DNA from: Naegleria gruberi
Lineage: Eukaryota
NCBI GenBank assembly: GCA_000004985.1
Contig: GG738918.1
Length of the DNA: 64,000 nt
Direction: 5' to 3' (one strand)
In this document: piece by piece, positions 944 to 10,869 of the stretch
Numbering within the stretch: the stretch's first letter is position 1
Layout of the letters: every line of letters begins with the position of its first letter
Notes under the pieces: generated by a model
What the model was told of the DNA's origin: nothing
The model's input: only the letters and a program-made list of their open reading frames with translations
Database searches by the model: none
Position numbers and translations under genes: made by a program

Positions 944-1669
944 TTTTTTTAATTATGAAAAAGATATTAAATGATTGCTTAAATTTCTAAATGTTCATTG
1001 AAATGTTGTAGTGGACACAATGAATGAACATCAATGTCTGTCATCTCTCTTGATTGTTTTACAATGTTGTTGTTGTAGTTTCTAACTATTACTATCAACA
1101 TCAATCAATTTATTCATTATTAATATCTCAAACTCTAAATGATAATGATATTTGAAATTTGTGTTCTAGAACTCTCCTTCTAAATATAGCAATAATAAGC
1201 TCTGCTTTATCTCTAATAATTCCCATTGCTATACAATAGCCAAACTAGCTCCATATCTGTATCCTTTGAAGAAATAATATCATTAATACTACTGTTAGAT
1301 TAATGGAAGAGAAATTGTAAATTTTCATTTATTATTTCTTACTGAAAACAGAGTGAATAGTTGCAGTGGTACTAGTAAGTTTGTGATGGTATTGTTGTGT
1401 TTGAAACTAAATCCATTCTCTGATTCCTTATTTCTCACAGAGAAGAGAGGAGAAATAATTGAAACACCTACACACATATCTTTTCTACACAATCATCAGG
1501 CCCTAGGAACCTATAAGGAGAAAGAAACAGTGTTAAAACTCATTATAATAGTTCTGGATATTAATAAATCTTGCTAAAGAATAATGCCGATTATTCTCTA
1601 AACTAATAAAATCATTTTGATTCAATATTCTGATAGTCAAGGAAATTACATCTAATAAATTTGGTTAAT

Positions 1670-2912: not shown

Positions 2913-3503
2913 ATGAAACAACAAATTAATAATGTCAATTTGTTATTGATGATCATTGGTTGTTTATTGATTATGATAATGATTGCTGAACATGTCTCTT
3001 CTCAAAGAGTTATTCTCTCCATGACTTCCATCTCTCAAACACCATATCTTTACACTGGTTATTTCACACCTGATGTCAGAAATCAACATTGGAATTGGGT
3101 TGGATCTAATCTTCAAGGAATTACCAATCCATTTTATGGTGAATTATCAATTCCAATTCAAGGATTTGATCCAATCATTTATAGAGGTCATCTTTCTGCT
3201 AATACTAATTTTGTTTCTAATACTTTTCCTTTTGCATTGATGAGTGTTGCAATTACACCAAATTCTTTTAATGGAACATTCTCTATTGAAGGATCAATTC
3301 AATGTGGTGATAATGTTACTGGAGGAGGTGCACTTAGTGGTTTAAGATTTAAAGGAATTACTATAGATGGAAAAAGTGAAAATCATTCTGGAAATTGTTT
3401 TAATTATCAATGTCATTGTGCACAATGTCGTGATTCTGTTACTGTTGCCATGTCTGTTTGTTATCAATCTATTACTCCAAAACCATCATTTTTAGGAAAA
3501 TAA
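2913..3503 (+). CDS. secreted or type II membrane Cys-containing protein
   Basis: ATG at 2913 in an A-run context (aaaaaaaaATG). N-terminal hydrophobic signal/anchor (LLLMIIGCLLIMIMIA), several Cys and N-glycosylation-like sites. The ORF track starts further upstream at 2811, which is probably 5' UTR. Confidence 0.4.
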   Translation: MKQQINNVNLLLMIIGCLLIMIMIAEHVSSQRVILSMTSISQTPYLYTGYFTPDVRNQHWNWVGSNLQGITNPFYGELSIPIQGFDPIIYRGHLSANTNFVSNTFPFALMSVAITPNSFNGTFSIEGSIQCGDNVTGGGALSGLRFKGITIDGKSENHSGNCFNYQCHCAQCRDSVTVAMSVCYQSITPKPSFLGK

Positions 3504-3513
3504 ATTGTTTATT

Positions 3514-6204
3514 TTATCTATCAAAGCTTTTAATTTCCATATTTACTTTTTTATCCAAATTGGTAATTGCTTCTGATATAATTGTTTTTACTAAAAATGG
3601 TTCAAAATATCTACGCATTGTGTTACTATTATTTTTGAATATTACTGAAAAATTATTAATGATATTCTTGGCTTGATCCATTAGATTATTTGTTTTCAAA
3701 TATTGTGCTAAATGTGTACCAATTAAACTTTCCTTTTTAGGTGGTTGTAATGCCGTAATAGATGAAAAAATCAAAGCTCTATCAATCATTTCATCATCGA
3801 GTGAAAACCCACATCGTGAAGAATATCCATTCTGATCTATATAAATATTACTCTTATTTTCTTTAACTTCTAATATACATCTAATAAAATTATCATATAA
3901 AATACTATTTAGTAAATTATTCTTAAATTGTTGAGATTTTAAAAGAGTAAATTCTTGAATGGATGATATTGAAATTTCATTCAATGATTTTGGAATAGTT
4001 ATAAAACCACTTTCTATTCCAATTGGATAATATTTAATTTTACATGAATCATCTTCCATATTTGGAAAATTGTTATCAGTTGTATCATTAAATAATTTTG
4101 AAATTTCCATAAAATTATTAAATAATAATGAATTATGAACAGTTCTTTGATTTTTGTAGGTGAAAAAACGCATTATTATTTCCTCTCCATTACAAAGTTT
4201 AATTTCCAAATTTATAAAATTCACATTTCTACTAATTTGGTGAATTCCTTGTTTAATTTCTTTCATTGTAAATGGCATGAATATTTGATTTTCAATATTC
4301 AAATAATTTTGTTTCATATCATAAAAATAATCCAAAAATAAACATTGATTTCTAATAATTTCAATTTCATTCATATTCATCATTTTCACAAATTTCATTA
4401 ACACTAATTTACAAATAAGGTAATGAGATTCTGATTTGAGTAACCAAAATAATTGATTTCCAAATACTTTAGATTTTATACATCTAGTGATAAGATATTC
4501 TGATAACAATCCATTTTCATTCTCATATTTAATACATTGAATGAGAAACGGTAAAATATAAGAAAATATTTCGTCCTTAGTTTCGTCTAAATATTTGAGT
4601 AGTGTTAATTTTGAAAATATGCCAATTTTAGAAGAGAATAACGTGAATAGTTCCATCACATTATTTGGTTTCTTCCATTTTTCCATGATTTGATTAGCTC
4701 TAAATAGTACCATTGGAGTTTCGAATGAAATTCCAAGCAGAAATGGAACAAAATGTGAAGAATCATTTACATTCCACTTGTTATTTTCTAAAATAGTCTC
4801 CAATTTCAAATCATTTTCATCTTCAATTAAATTTGGTTTTCTATCTAAATAATACTTTACAATACAATCATGAGTAGGAAATTCAATTTCAAGAGAAAGT
4901 TCTGAATTTTTTGTATTTTGTAAAAGTTTAACATTTCCTTGAATTAATTCCAAATTTGAATCAAACACTGAACATTCAAAATAGTTGGGTTTCATAATCT
5001 CAATTCTTTTAAGAATTCCAGTCTCTAAATCTTCTCTATAACAAACAAGTGAAAATTTGATAGAATAGTCACATGAAAATTGTGAAATTTGAGTTTCGAA
5101 TATAATTTCTTCATTCCATTCGAGTGGTATTTCTATATTTTGGAGAGGAATGATTTTAGTGTCGTGAATTTCATTTTTCTTTTCATTTGAAATTATTGAA
5201 CATTCAATTGAAAAGGAAGTGAAATTTCCATATTCGAATAACAAATCCCTAAATGAAAGTCCATGAACTTGTTTTATCACAACACTCATTCTCTTATTAA
5301 AATCAAATGATGATGATGATACAATATTATTATCTATCAATTTTTCATTATTCATTTCAAATTTCTTTTCAAAAATTGAATCAAGAAATGAAATATTACT
5401 TTCAGTCAATTCTCTTTCATTTTCTAAAAGACAATTACAATTCACATAACTAATTTGATTATTATTGACAAGTCCACATAAAATATTTCTATCATTTCTT
5501 GATAATGTCTTGTTATATTTCATGTTTAAATATTTCAATTTAGGAAATGAACTTATAATTGGAATTACATTTCCATTTAGGTAATTATTAGATAGATCTA
5601 ATTTTGTCAAGTTATTACAATTGAATTTTGTAAATAATTGAATAAAATCTTTAGAATAAACTGAACAATCTGGAATTTCCAAATTAGTTAAACTTTCACA
5701 ATCACAAATATTCTCAATTAATTTGAATGAATTGGAAGTTTGAGATCTTAATTTTAAACTTTTCAATTTGAATGGTTTAAATTCTGTGTTGGGGTTTCTA
5801 AATTTCCAAATAGTATCACCTGAAATGGAAAGTTTTACCAAATTAGTCAATTCACATTTTAACAATTCTGAAAAGTTTTCTGTATTTCCATTTATAATAT
5901 TCAATTCTTCCAAATTATTAGAAATTCTTGAAATTTCTTTGAAATTTACAGTACTGTCTATTAGAGAAAGTGATTTCACTGTCAATGGAATTACATTACT
6001 ATTTATAGTAACTCCAACTAATTTCAGTTTTCTCAAATTAGTATAATCCAAATGATATAATTCTATTGTTGAATTGTTTTTACAGCAAATTACTAATGAA
6101 TAAATTTGATGTTTGATAGATTGACCAATTACTTCAACTGCTGAATTAAATTTTACATCAATTGCCAAATTGACCAAATTAGGTAATGTCATTCTACTAT
6201 TCAT
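3514..6204 (-). CDS. leucine-rich-repeat region plus C2-like, helical and PI3K/PI4K-like catalytic-domain-like C-terminal module; apparent pseudokinase
   Basis: Many LxxLxLxxN repeats in the first ~330 aa. Later, FGNQLFWLLKSE resembles the PIK helical/kinase boundary (F.FW.LK.E). KIKYYPIGIESGFITIPKSLNEISISSIQ matches the PI3K pattern L.MLPYGCLS.GD.GLIE.V..S.TI..IQ. Where the DRH catalytic loop and DFG are expected, the sequence reads ENKSN and SSRCGF, and the GDDLRQD box is absent. Confidence 0.55.
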   Translation of the reverse strand: MNSRMTLPNLVNLAIDVKFNSAVEVIGQSIKHQIYSLVICCKNNSTIELYHLDYTNLRKLKLVGVTINSNVIPLTVKSLSLIDSTVNFKEISRISNNLEELNIINGNTENFSELLKCELTNLVKLSISGDTIWKFRNPNTEFKPFKLKSLKLRSQTSNSFKLIENICDCESLTNLEIPDCSVYSKDFIQLFTKFNCNNLTKLDLSNNYLNGNVIPIISSFPKLKYLNMKYNKTLSRNDRNILCGLVNNNQISYVNCNCLLENERELTESNISFLDSIFEKKFEMNNEKLIDNNIVSSSSFDFNKRMSVVIKQVHGLSFRDLLFEYGNFTSFSIECSIISNEKKNEIHDTKIIPLQNIEIPLEWNEEIIFETQISQFSCDYSIKFSLVCYREDLETGILKRIEIMKPNYFECSVFDSNLELIQGNVKLLQNTKNSELSLEIEFPTHDCIVKYYLDRKPNLIEDENDLKLETILENNKWNVNDSSHFVPFLLGISFETPMVLFRANQIMEKWKKPNNVMELFTLFSSKIGIFSKLTLLKYLDETKDEIFSYILPFLIQCIKYENENGLLSEYLITRCIKSKVFGNQLFWLLKSESHYLICKLVLMKFVKMMNMNEIEIIRNQCLFLDYFYDMKQNYLNIENQIFMPFTMKEIKQGIHQISRNVNFINLEIKLCNGEEIIMRFFTYKNQRTVHNSLLFNNFMEISKLFNDTTDNNFPNMEDDSCKIKYYPIGIESGFITIPKSLNEISISSIQEFTLLKSQQFKNNLLNSILYDNFIRCILEVKENKSNIYIDQNGYSSRCGFSLDDEMIDRALIFSSITALQPPKKESLIGTHLAQYLKTNNLMDQAKNIINNFSVIFKNNSNTMRRYFEPFLVKTIISEAITNLDKKVNMEIKSFDR

Positions 6205-6207
6205 CTA

Positions 6208-6681
6208 TTCACTATATATTTTATCATCAATACTAAACAGTGATGAAATATCCAAAGATTTCAACTTGTAAAAATATGTAATAATAATATTTAATCCATA
6301 ATAATCCAATCCACTATTTTCTTTCAATGTTAAACTTTTTAAATTTTCATAAAATTTAAAATTTTTCATAATTTCCAAATCAGCATTTGAAAATGAACCT
6401 GTTAAACTTGAAATCCTATAAAACAATCTATTATTTTGAATAGCAGTTATAAAATTATTGATTGGATCACAATGATGATCTTTACGTGATGAAAATCTTG
6501 AAAATAATTTGTGTTTCTTTTTAATTTCAATTTCAAGTTTGGAAAAAGTTGATGCGAATTTCCACTTCTTACAAGTGTGAGAAATTATTTGGAGAATGAA
6601 TTTGGAGTGGAGAAAGGAAAAGATTTCAACCAACATTTCTGTTGGCAGGTTATTAATAATGAGAGAAGATGTTAGTGACAT
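6208..6681 (-). CDS. F-box domain N-terminal segment; the ORF ends at an in-frame TAG at 6205..6207 and is directly followed by the LRR/PI3K-like ORF
   Basis: N-terminus LPTEMLVEIFSFLHSKFILQIISHTCKKW is a cyclin-like F-box. Leucine-rich repeats (LKSLTLKEN..LKSLDISSLF) begin before the stop. The same frame continues after the single TAG. Confidence 0.6.
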
Positions 6682-7098
6682 TTTCTTTAATATTAAAACG
6701 TGATTTCATATCAATTTCAATTCCAATCATTTACCTAATAAAAATGATCAAATGGGTTTATATTACTCAAGTTAAGGTAATGAATGGCTACGAAGCCATT
6801 TATTTTCTGCGGACATAGATAATGATTACTGAGTTGTTGTCATCATTGGTACCAAATACATTGATGAAGATTTGAATGAATTGAACCTCCGGAGATTGGT
6901 TAAAGCCCTAAAGGTTATTGAATGATAATTTGATTAAAGTTAAATTATGCAATCAAGACTTTTAGTACTTGAGAAATTGATACACTCCAAAAAACTCTTG
7001 GTAGTCACCTTCTTTATTATATATTAGCTATTGGAATTGATTCGCAGTAGAGCTTCTTTTTGAAGTAGATTTATATTTCAGAAATTATGGTTGTTGAT

Positions 7099-7218
7099 GG
7101 CTACGGCCATATCACGATGAATGCACCTCATCCCGTCCGATTTGAGAAGTTAAGTATCGTCGAGCCACATCAGTACTGAGGTTGGAGACAACTTGGGAAC
7201 CTGTGGTGCTGTAGTCTT
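7099..7218 (+). rRNA. 5S ribosomal RNA gene
   Basis: GGCTACGGCCATATCACGATGAATGCACCTCATCCCGTCCGATTTGAGAAGTTAAGTATCGTCGAGCCACATCAGTACTGAGGTTGGAGACAACTTGGGAACCTGTGGTGCTGTAGTCT matches the conserved 5S blocks (ACGGCCATA, CATCCCGTxCGAT, AAGTACT, GGGAAC..GGTGCTGTA), is about 119 nt long, and is followed by a T-run. Confidence 0.85.
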
Positions 7219-7221
7219 TTT
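7217..7221 (+). terminator. RNA polymerase III T-run terminator of the 5S gene
   Basis: TTTTT immediately after ...GCTGTAGTC. Confidence 0.6.
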
Positions 7222-7246
7222 GATTTCATCCCTTGTTAATCAAACC
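7218..7246. repeat. left arm of a ~30-bp inverted repeat flanking the di-ubiquitin-like gene
   Basis: tttgatttcatcccttgttaatcaaacc. Its reverse complement recurs at 8107..8137 (ggtttttgattaacaaggggatgaaatcaaa) with about 27 of 29 positions matching. Confidence 0.6.
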
Positions 7247-7481
7247 ATTAAAACAACTTTTTTCAAAATCAATGAAGTTGCATTCATGGAGTAACATAGT
7301 TGCTCAATTATTACAAAATATGAACCAAATTTGTGTCCAGAAACAAAAATCAGGCCATGCAAGAATTTCTTTGCCGTCAAGAACTACTCTCTAAAAATAC
7401 ATACATCTTAAAACAGGTTAAAAAGAAAAGAATGTTTTGAATATAAGAAAAACAACAAGAAAAAACAAAACAACAATTATA

Positions 7482-7940
7482 ATGCAATTATTTGTCAAGA
7501 CACTCACTGGAAGAACTATCACTTTGGAAGTTGAATCTAATGATTCAATTGAAAATGTGAAAAGAAAGGTACAAGATAAGGAAGGAATTTCACCAGATCA
7601 ACAAAGACTCATCTTTGCTGGTAAACAATTGGAAGATGGCAGAACTATTAATGATTACAACATTCAAAAAGATTCAACACTTCATTTGGTATTGAGATTA
7701 AGAGGAGGAATGCAACTCTTCGTAAAAACCTTAACTGGAAAGACCATTACTATCGAAATGGAATCAAACGACACTGTTGAGAATATGAAACAAAAGATAT
7801 TTGATAAGGAAGGTATTCCTTCAGATCAACAACGTTTGATTTATGCCGGTAAACAATTAGAAGATGGCAGAACTATTAATGATTACAATCTTCAAAAGGA
7901 TTCAACTGTGCATTTAGTATTGAGATTGAGAGGAGGTTAA
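7482..7940 (+). CDS. tandem di-ubiquitin-like protein: two divergent ubiquitin-fold repeats, each ending in RLRGG
   Basis: ATG at 7482 in an A-rich context. Repeat 1 is [76 protein letters not shown]. Repeat 2 is [76 protein letters not shown]. They differ from canonical ubiquitin at about 11 and 16 of 76 positions. K48, K63 and the GG tail are retained. The ORF track's upstream start at 7437 is probably leader. Confidence 0.85.
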
Positions 7941-8106
7941 ACAACATAGTATCGTAGATTCTCTCAATTATTGTAAATAAATTATACTTTGAATAGTGAA
8001 ATATTGATGTCGTATGGATAAATTGATCACGAGGTTTGCTTGTTAATGAAACTTATTTTAATTACAACTGCAGAAGGAATTTTGAAGCTAGAAATTGATT
8101 GATTTT

Positions 8107-8137
8107 GGTTTTTGATTAACAAGGGGATGAAATCAAA
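8107..8137. repeat. right arm of the inverted repeat (partner of 7218..7246)
   Basis: See left arm. The arms are about 860 bp apart and enclose the 7482..7940 CDS. Confidence 0.6.
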
Positions 8138-8469: not shown

Positions 8470-10869
8470 ATGAGTCAACAAGAAACATCATCTGATATGA
8501 TTGATAATAATAATCAAACGACTGGTGGTGGAGATGAAGCAATGATTGAATCTCCAGTACTCACCTCTGAAATTAATGTTCAACAACCAACACAACAAGA
8601 AGAATCACAACAACAACAACAACAAACAAGCCTTGTTGCCGAAGATGAAGCACAAAACAATACCTCATCTTCATCTTCATCGAATACAACAAATGAAGAG
8701 AATGTTCCTTCCTCTAATAACCATACAAATACTGATAACAATGTTCAAAATGTTCAATCAACAAGTGTAAATACAAAGAAGGAACAAGAAATTGATACTA
8801 CAAAACCAAAAGGAGAATATATCATCGGAGGAGCTGATGATGATGAAGAAGAAGTTTATGTTCCTAAATATCAGAGTGATTCTCCACCTTTACAACTTGA
8901 ATGGAAAGATCTTAGTTACAAAGTTAAACAACCAATTGATGCTCCTGCTCATTTGAGTGTTCCTCAAAAGATTGGATTTAAACTGAAGAATATGTTCAAA
9001 AAGAAGGAAAAGGTTATTTTGCACGAAATGTCTGGATTTGTAAGTCCTGGAAGTACTCTTGCTATTATGGTATGTTTTTAATAGTTGAACTTTGTAATTG
9101 AAATATTGTGACAATATGAATCATAATTTTCATATGATGAATATGATCATTGTGATATAATAGGGTCCTAGTGGTGCTGGTAAAACATCTCTCTGTAAGT
9201 ATTATCATGATTTCAATCCATTCTAAACATCATATGTATTTAAGTGAATATTCTTGCTCAACGTGTTAAGGAAACATCTGGTGATATCACTGTAAATGGT
9301 GTCAAGATTAGTAGTAGTTTCCGTTCTTTGTCTGCATTCGTTCAACAAGATGACGTTCTTATGGGTAATTTGAGTGTTAGAGAAACATTACGTTATGCAG
9401 CTCTTTTACGTTTACCAAAGACAATTTCATGGAAGGAAAAGATGGAACGTGTTGAATCAATTATGGATGAATTGGGTCTCTTAAAGAGTGCTAATACTAA
9501 AGTTGGTACACCTGGTTTAACTAAGGGTATTTCAGGAGGTGAAAGAAAACGTTTGAGTATTGCCATTGAATTATTGACACAACCAAGTATTTTATTCTTG
9601 GATGAACCTACAAGTGGTTTGGATGCTGCTACAGCTTACAGTGTCATGAAAACAATTATCAAAATTTCAAAGGGTGGTAGAGCTGTCATTTTAACTATCC
9701 ATCAACCTCGTTCCAATATTTATGAACTTTTTGATAAGTTACTTCTTTTAGCTCGTGGTAAGATTGCTTATTTCGGTCCAGCTAAAGATGCCACTACATA
9801 TTTCGGAAATGTTGGTTATCCATGTCCAAAACAATATAACCCAGCTGATCACTTTATTGATCTAATTACTGAATCTACTAGTGACACTGGTGAAGGTAAA
9901 AAATTGAAACAAGAAGATAATGAACGTATTGAAAAGATTCTTACAAATTATAATCACACTGAAGTTGCTCCATCAGTTGATCACTTGAAGACTGATATTA
10001 AGAAAGCCAAGTATAATGCCAATTGGTTTACTCAATTCTTCGTTGTGATGGCAAGAGCATTTGTTAATATTTTACGTGACAAGATTTTAACATTTTCAAG
10101 ATTATTCCAGAATTTAGCGATGGCTATTCTAGTCGGTTTGATCTTTTTACAAATTGGTTATGATCAGCAATCTGTTCAAGATAGAAATGGTGTTCTCTTC
10201 TTTTGTTTAGTTAACCAATCTATGAATTCCATTTTTGGTTCATTAACAGTTTTCCTTTTAGAAGAAAAGAAAGTATTTTTAAGAGAACGAGGTTCTAAAA
10301 TGTACAAAGTGAGTGCCTATTATCTTGGTAGAAGTATCAGTGAATTGCCAAATATTATCTTCTTCCCAATCCTATTTGGTACAATTGTTTATTGGATGTG
10401 TAATTTGAATCCAGGTGCAGATCGATTCTTTGTTTTCCTTTTAATTTTAGTTTCAATGGCTTTAGCTGCTCAAGCTCTTGGTATGGTGTTAGCTGTATGT
10501 GCACCTTCAATGGAATTTGCAACTGCTATTGCACCTGTATTGTTAACAGTTTTGATGTTGTTTGGTGGTTTGTACATGAATGTTGATAATATTCCACCAT
10601 ACTTTATTTGGATTTATTGGTTATCTATTTTCCACTTTGGTTATGAAGCATTGGTATTGAATGAATTTGGTGGTGCTACTTTTGAATGTCCACCATCTCC
10701 ATCTGCATGTACCTATAGAACTGGTGAAGATGTTATTAGTAGAAATGCTATGAATAAGCCATACTCAAACATTTGGTTCAATCTTGGTTTATTGTGGGCC
10801 TTCTTTTTAGTTTATCGTTTTATGGCCTACCTCATTCTCGTATTTGTTGTCAAACCAAAGAAAGGATAA
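8470..10869 (+). CDS. ABC transporter, G-family (White-type) half-transporter; exons 8470..9069, 9164..9194, 9245..10869
   Basis: Introns 9070..9163 (GTATGT..TAG) and 9195..9244 (GTAAGT..AAG). The 31-nt mini-exon rebuilds the Walker A box GPSGAGKTSLLNILAQR across the splice. ABC signature ISGGERKRLSIAIELLTQPSILFLDEPTSGLD. Six TM helices at the C-terminus (NBD-TMD order typical of ABCG). Confidence 0.85.

Follow-up and report, generated by a model that had tools for sequence, protein, structure and literature searches.

A Naegleria multigene family member as probable precursor of two non-identical ubiquitin variants

Ubiquitin is the textbook case of a near-invariant protein. In canonical polyubiquitin genes, such as yeast UBI4, human UBB and UBC and those encoding P0167 and P0168 in Naegleria gruberi, it is laid out as spacer-free 76-residue units with RLRGG ends, often followed by one extra C-terminal residue, and the units are released by deubiquitinases. 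A single precursor can also give rise to two different ubiquitin-fold modifiers, as in the plant ubiquitin-RUB1/NEDD8 fusions, which are cleaved at the GG junction; RUB1/NEDD8 is ~58-60% identical to ubiquitin and is directed to its own E1 by A72. The vertebrate-restricted modifiers ISG15 and FAT10 each contain a pair of ubiquitin folds and finish in a C-terminal GG, are ~30-40% identical to ubiquitin and use dedicated E1 enzymes; neither is known to have an internal cleavable GG, the two folds being joined by a linker that is not cut. In Arabidopsis, the polyubiquitin-like genes UBQ7, UBQ8, UBQ9 and UBQ12 reportedly carry substituted repeats and stand beside canonical polyubiquitin genes. Variant ubiquitins with targets of their own have been recognised only recently, the example being human UbKEKS. 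Specifically, variants encoded by UBBP4, a lone locus that carries a pseudogene annotation, keep the C-terminal GG and are conjugated to distinct targets, and UbKEKS carries four substitutions, including the loss of K33 and a change at Q2 (PMC7066184). It thus provides a precedent for a separate modifier arising from few substitutions.

We analysed a 64,000-nt stretch of N. gruberi contig GG738918.1 (the window), in which an uninterrupted 152-residue reading frame encodes two ubiquitin-fold units in head-to-tail order (Table 1). Such an arrangement had been proposed in a preliminary description of this DNA and is borne out by the intact frame and by two matches to Pfam family PF00240 in the translated protein (E = 4e-60; ~105 bits per unit where the cut-off is 25.4, E = 2e-30). 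The product coincides residue for residue with an entry on a 222-kb scaffold (XP_002670147.1 / EFC37403.1 / D2W0B4_NAEGR) that bears the database label 'ubiquitin [Naegleria gruberi]', and PDB di-ubiquitin chains match it with E = 1e-81. An AlphaFold2 model of the protein, computed on a family alignment of 14 sequences that proved too shallow, was discarded (pLDDT 64.5, secondary structure partly wrong), so that the fold is assigned from the sequence identity shared with ubiquitins of solved structure. Our preferred reading, to which we assign a probability of roughly 0.6, is that the gene belongs to a Naegleria-specific family and encodes a precursor of two non-identical ubiquitin variants, made alongside canonical polyubiquitin and ubiquitin-ribosomal-protein fusions.

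Table 1 Coordinates of the variant di-ubiquitin gene and of associated features in the window.
Feature	Position	Strand	Details
5S rRNA gene, full length	7099..7217	+	102 bits against a gathering score of 38
Inverted repeat, left arm (TTTGATTTCATCCCTTGTTAATCAAA)	7219..7244	+	26 nt; 3' flank of the 5S gene
Upstream region, putative promoter and 5' UTR	7293..7481	+	~91% identical to L002 and L003
Motif TTTGTGTCCAGAAAC	7330-7344	+	also kept in distant paralogs L004 and L005
TATA-like motif AGAACTACTCTCTAAAAATAC	7380-7400	+	also kept in distant paralogs
Variant di-ubiquitin CDS	7482..7940	+	ATG at 7482, 152 codons, TAA at 7938-7940; product XP_002670147.1 / D2W0B4_NAEGR
Unit 1	7482..7709	+	76 aa, C-terminal RLRGG
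Near-identical block in unit 1	7620..7660	+	41 nt, codons 47-60; possible conversion donor
Unit 2	7710..7937	+	76 aa, RLRGG followed directly by the stop codon, no extra residue
Near-identical block in unit 2	7848..7888	+	41 nt, one mismatch against the unit-1 block
Downstream region, putative 3' UTR	7941..8007	+	conserved with closest paralogs; AATAAA at ~7976-7981
Inverted repeat, right arm	8111..8137	-	27 nt, one extra base; inverted 5S 3' flank, no 5S gene

The window gene shares with canonical polyubiquitin the spacer-free 76-residue units, the RLRGG ends and the double occurrence of PF00240. Its unit junction reads RLRGG/MQLFVK (the slash marks the boundary), with no spacer, which is the format of a polyubiquitin precursor, and release of the units by deubiquitinases is presumed for the Naegleria variants as well. 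By contrast, polyubiquitin proper consists of canonical units throughout, whereas the two Naegleria units are unlike each other (14/76 residues) and unlike the organism's own ubiquitin (9 and 14 residues, respectively); the gene is composed of two fixed, differentiated unit types, and the window copy lacks the extra C-terminal residue. With ubiquitin-RUB1/NEDD8 fusions it would have in common the delivery of two different modifiers from one precursor, given the cleavage that we infer for Naegleria. Both Naegleria units, however, have R72 rather than A72 and are 88% (unit 1) and 82% (unit 2) identical to N. gruberi ubiquitin, and the sequence hallmarks of ubiquitin proper (R72, R42, the L8/I44/H68/V70 patch and G75-G76) are present in both. 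Two ubiquitin folds per polypeptide and a C-terminal GG are also features of ISG15 and FAT10, but Naegleria unit 1 ends in RLRGG and directly abuts M1 of unit 2, with no linker between the folds.

The nearest precedents are instead variant polyubiquitin-like genes. The UBQ7/8/9/12 class of Arabidopsis is likewise of polyubiquitin format, with substituted repeats that coexist with canonical genes; it differs in lineage and in substitution set, and the Naegleria gene is a fixed heterotypic dimer, present in multiple copies and under purifying selection across species. Human UBBP4, with UbKEKS, is similarly a ubiquitin-format locus whose variant units end in GG, from which the Naegleria units are set apart by 9-14 mostly conservative changes and by their membership in a conserved family.

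Compared with human ubiquitin, unit 1 has 11 differences (I3L, K11R, P19S, S20N, T22S, A28R, I30V, P37S, L56I, S57N and E64D) and unit 2 has 16 (I3L, L15I, V17M, P19S, S20N, I23V, V26M, A28Q, Q31F, P38S, F45Y, L56I, S57N, I61L, E64D and L67V). These are exactly the counts that had been estimated beforehand, but they include lineage background. The canonical polyubiquitin unit of N. gruberi (P0167 and P0168), recovered with a query X-masked so as to seed only on 5-mer words of S19-N20, corresponds to human ubiquitin with P19S, S20N and A28S (73/76 identical), so that S19 and N20, and these two alone, are lineage background. Relative to this canonical unit, unit 1 has nine differences (I3L, K11R, T22S, S28R, I30V, P37S, L56I, S57N and E64D) and unit 2 has 14 (I3L, L15I, V17M, I23V, V26M, S28Q, Q31F, P38S, F45Y, L56I, S57N, I61L, E64D and L67V). 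The unit of the N. fowleri Ub-S27a fusion (P0188) is identical to the N. gruberi canonical unit (0/76 differences), and the remaining variant substitutions are absent from P0167, P0168 and P0188. The preliminary description had singled out the bona fide polyubiquitin genes as the place where shared substitutions would betray lineage-wide drift; P0167 and P0168 lack them, S19 and N20 apart, and the window gene is a distinct paralog. In N. fowleri, the three-unit polyubiquitin solved as PDB 5VIX has a reported identity of 96% with human tri-ubiquitin (PMC7990177). It scores 282.0 bits with phmmer against the window protein, a value matched by a P19S+S20N background (282.1 bits), the 5VIX sequence being deduced from this bit-score calibration together with the published identity.

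As for the residues retained, neither unit has lost K6, K27, K29, K33, K48 or K63, and K11 is replaced by R in unit 1 only; this lysine inventory, like the RLRGG ends, had been read correctly from the outset. Both units also keep Q2, F4, T12, L8, I36, R42, I44, S65, H68, V70, L71, R72, L73, R74, G75 and G76. Judged from sequence, the window gene has kept all conjugation determinants checked, and across 14 family members the conjugation and recognition residues are almost all invariant, with V70 varying in unit 1 of two Naegleria homologs. Changes in the core are conservative hydrophobic swaps (positions 3, 15, 17, 23, 26, 30, 56, 61 and 67), and those at the surface fall at positions 22, 28, 31 (Q to F, unit 2), 37/38, 45 (F to Y), 57 and 64 (E to D).

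The window gene is one member of a multigene family found across the genus, not a singleton. In a search with the unmasked 152-residue query, the list is dominated by three-unit polyubiquitins and the true relatives are hidden, because they are shorter and rank lower when domain scores are summed; a search in which residues were X-masked, leaving only variant-specific 5-mers to seed, returned 51 candidates. N. gruberi has at least ten full-length models of 152-153 residues (P0121, which is the window gene, P0128, P0130, P0131, P0132, P0133, P0135, P0136, P0138 and P0139), all composed of a unit-1-type followed by a unit-2-type unit. Nine distinct scaffold lengths are recorded for these ten models (P0128 and P0136 share one), which disperses them over at least nine scaffolds, although some could represent alleles assembled as separate scaffolds in NEG-M. 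Identity to the window protein is 94-99% among the nine of the ten models measured (all except P0133). Unit 1 defines two subfamilies, one with R11/S37/F45, to which the window gene belongs, and the other with K11/P37/E39/Y45. Seven models stop exactly at GG and three add one residue (G, C or Y); two further N. gruberi models, P0147 and P0150, are internally truncated. The homologs in N. fowleri are P0142 (156 residues), P0143 (155 residues) and the three-unit, truncated P0127, and those in N. lovaniensis are P0144 (153 residues) and the three-unit P0122. The internal RLRGG/MQ junction is kept in all copies but P0133, which reads WRLIGG. Database labels for the Naegleria family are limited to 'ubiquitin', 'polyubiquitin' or 'hypothetical protein', and the literature searched, by accession, locus tag and 5S-ubiquitin linkage among other terms, contained no paper describing these variant genes.

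Several further ubiquitin genes came to light alongside the family. Strongly divergent two- and three-unit ubiquitins from ENA/Logan eukaryotes (P0145, P0146 and P0123-P0126) have a substitution set unlike that of Naegleria, and variant polyubiquitin-like genes seem widespread among environmental eukaryotes. Ahead of its canonical units, P0167 has a much more divergent ubiquitin-like unit at residues 1-75 (MQLFIKTLSGHSFPIDVECTDSIEK...), which reflects either an error in the gene model or a further ubiquitin-like unit in its own right. A 1.88-Mb contig (ENA ERZ25333217; locus L001) carries three consecutive polyubiquitin genes at 3001-6687, encoding 228, 381 and >609 residues, and the first of them begins with a degenerate unit that has a one-residue deletion and ends in PCLRGG. 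P0017 from this metagenome contig, whose unit has A57, was set aside as a candidate for the canonical polyubiquitin of Naegleria.

The two units of the window gene differ at 51/228 nucleotides and use a different codon at 24 of the 62 positions with the same residue, corresponding to a dS of 1.35 and a dN of 0.13 (Nei-Gojobori). The earlier view that the unit duplication is not recent is upheld both by this dS and by the unit-2 residues L61 and V/I67, which are common to N. fowleri and N. lovaniensis. Specifically, every complete family protein has L61 and V/I67 in its last, unit-2-type unit, P0122 alone departing from this pattern (L61, but L67 kept); the middle units of the three-unit P0122 and P0127 lack both, and unit-2-type units also share I/V56 across species. 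Because these residues are common to the species, the units had already diverged when the species split. I3L and E64D are present in every family unit in all three species (N. gruberi, N. fowleri and N. lovaniensis), and T22S, F45Y and position 38 appear partly homogenised within species.

To follow selection at the DNA level, we compared copies from N. gruberi-type metagenome loci (L002, L004, L005 and L009), another assembly (L003) and N. fowleri (L006). The window gene differs from L002 and L003 with a dS of 0.21-0.25 and a dN/dS of 0.02-0.03, and from L004 and L005 with a dS of 0.62-0.64 and a dN/dS of 0.03-0.06; against L006, dS is saturated and dN is 0.10. L002 and L003 are separated by 20 synonymous and no non-synonymous differences and encode the identical protein. 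Pairwise dN/dS values between copies of 0.02-0.06, at dS values of 0.2-0.8, indicate functional genes. The variant family is under strong purifying selection with constraints of its own.

Under our preferred reading, the 152-residue precursor would be translated, as the intact frame and the strong purifying selection suggest. Precursor-processing deubiquitinases would then cut after G76 of unit 1, since RLRGG/MQ is the site cut in polyubiquitin, and unit 2 already ends in GG. The ubiquitin E1 would activate both 76-residue products and hand them on to E2 and E3. R72 is what sets ubiquitin apart from NEDD8 in E1 recognition, and with R72 and the recognition residues unchanged, both units should be substrates of the ubiquitin E1. 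The outcome would be a second ubiquitin-like pool, distinguished by conservative core swaps and by surface changes at positions 28, 31, 37/38, 57 and 64. The window gene probably supplies such a variant pool, whether functionally distinct or supplementary, and the substitutions are so conservative that its products may work no differently from ubiquitin itself.

Several other explanations can be envisioned. If the products are interchangeable with ubiquitin, the family would represent extra, perhaps stress-inducible, polyubiquitin-type genes, and its substitutions would be tolerated drift. Nearly all changes are indeed conservative (I/L/V/M swaps, E64D, F45Y, T22S and K11R) or located at surface positions (19-20, 28, 31, 38 and 57) that tolerate change in mutational scans of yeast ubiquitin; every interaction patch and, K11 of unit 1 aside, every lysine is retained, and the high copy number is what a supply gene predicts. 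We nevertheless consider such redundancy rather unlikely. The identity of the canonical unit in N. gruberi and N. fowleri argues that changes in bulk ubiquitin are not tolerated in this lineage, L3, D64, Y45, L61 and V/I67 are kept across species whose synonymous sites are saturated, and no homogenisation between the variant family and the canonical genes has taken place. Going beyond our preferred reading in the opposite direction, a genus-wide second ubiquitin code could be imagined, in which the multi-copy precursor delivers two variants at 1:1 and the surface changes (28, 31, 37/38, 57, 64 and, in unit 1, K11R) are read differently by some E2/E3 enzymes, deubiquitinases or receptors. We regard this as speculative and quite doubtful; such a code could serve the amoeba-to-flagellate transition or ribosome-linked regulation, the 5S rRNA linkage described below hinting at the latter.

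Another alternative is that the protein remains uncleaved and acts as one joined modifier or signalling module, similar to ISG15 and FAT10, or imitates M1-linked di-ubiquitin. The fixed order of unit 1 and unit 2, which all full-length copies from N. gruberi share with the two-unit proteins of N. fowleri and N. lovaniensis, is in line with this possibility, as are the seven N. gruberi proteins that stop exactly at GG, but the nearly universal internal junction is of the canonical, cleavable type and three-unit versions exist in P0122 and P0127, which makes an uncleaved product improbable. Lastly, degenerate family models (P0133 with its altered junction, and the internally truncated P0147 and P0150) show where a duplicate of polyubiquitin could be decaying into a pseudogene. 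Such a fate is very hard to credit for the window gene, whose frame is intact and free of disabling mutations, whose upstream motifs are conserved, whose family is conserved across three species and whose dN/dS is far from ~1.

In Naegleria, a frozen canonical ubiquitin stands beside a heterotypic pair of variants that is conserved, encoded in multiple copies and under strong purifying selection, and the family represents a natural experiment showing where ubiquitin can vary with function retained. If the variants are conjugated, their C-terminal tail, being that of ubiquitin, would make them indistinguishable from it in standard trypsin-based di-Gly proteomics, and ubiquitylation data from Naegleria, including the pathogen N. 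fowleri, may blend two or three modifiers. Conversely, if the products are simply redundant with ubiquitin, the result is an ordinary refinement of gene-family annotation.

The preliminary description had also noted a 40-nt block nearly identical between the units and proposed local gene conversion. The block is real and extends over one nucleotide more, and the evidence for conversion is suggestive. Within the block, unit 2 has AAA (K48), GGC (G53) and AAT (N57), for which the sister copies have AAG, GGA and GGT (G57). Eight nucleotides distinguish unit 2 from both closest copies, five of which cluster within 27 nt (unit positions 144-170); four of these five are in the unit-1 state (AAG to AAA, GGA to GGC, and GGT to AAT, or G57N), compared with 0/3 of those beyond the block. 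N57 in unit 2 is confined to the window copy and the truncated P0147. A scan statistic for the clustering gives p = 0.024 at the nucleotide level and 0.077 at the codon level. Identity of the block by itself says little, because two-fold codons and AT bias favour it and because, in other copies and in N. fowleri too, the two units resemble each other most in this region. It is plausible that a short tract was converted from a unit 1, whether that of the window gene or that of another copy.

Conservation extends into the flanks of the gene. Upstream, the TATA-like TCTAAAAATAC at about -90 persists in L004 and L005, and the upstream motifs are kept even in loci that otherwise share only the CDS (among the N. 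gruberi-type loci aligned, namely those other than L009), which marks TTTGTGTCCAGAAAC and AGAACTACTCTCTAAAAATAC as candidate family-specific promoter elements. A reading of these motifs as heat-shock elements was rejected, as their spacing does not fit nGAAnnTTCn, and a scan for bacterial promoters and terminators, irrelevant to a eukaryotic host, gave no signal above shuffled sequences. Downstream, ~70 nt match the closest copies at ~91% identity.

A 5S rRNA gene lies 265 nt upstream of the di-ubiquitin ATG on the same strand, and the 3' flank of this gene recurs in inverted orientation from 171 nt past the di-ubiquitin stop. The resulting inverted repeat, TTTGATTTCATCCC(C)TTGTTAATCAAA, brackets a 919-bp cassette that includes the putative promoter, the CDS and the AATAAA. 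In L002, an inverted 5S gene (1301-1403, minus strand) starts ~170 nt past the stop and has a 3' flank homologous to the repeat arm, so that the right arm in the window most likely derives from a second, inverted 5S gene, of which it is a remnant. A mobile element delimited by the 26/27-nt inverted repeat was considered and rejected, the arms being better explained as 5S 3' flanks; no target-site duplication was seen by eye and no more copies of the arms were found in the window or in the fetched loci. Of the six loci scanned, the window included, two have a 5S gene beside the di-ubiquitin gene, upstream and in direct orientation in the window and downstream and inverted in L002; none is adjacent in L004, L005, L009 or L006, and L003 gave no match on a contig too short to judge. 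This pattern suggests a recurrent linkage of 5S and di-ubiquitin genes in N. gruberi.

Elsewhere in the window, which has ~30% G+C and in which neighbouring ORFs contain poly-Q and poly-N, both in keeping with N. gruberi, a 43-nt stretch at 6750-6800 is 72% identical to the 5S 5' flank and first bases of the gene (ending GGCTACG, then AAGCCAT). It may be a 5S gene fragment, although it has no Rfam match even at E <= 1. On the minus strand, an F-box-like ORF (6205-6681) abuts a PI3Ka-domain ORF (3514-6204), the two possibly forming one gene, and among the neighbours only the F-box offers an obvious functional link to the ubiquitin gene. On the plus strand, an ABCG-type transporter extends over two ORFs at 8470-10869 and is probably split by an intron.
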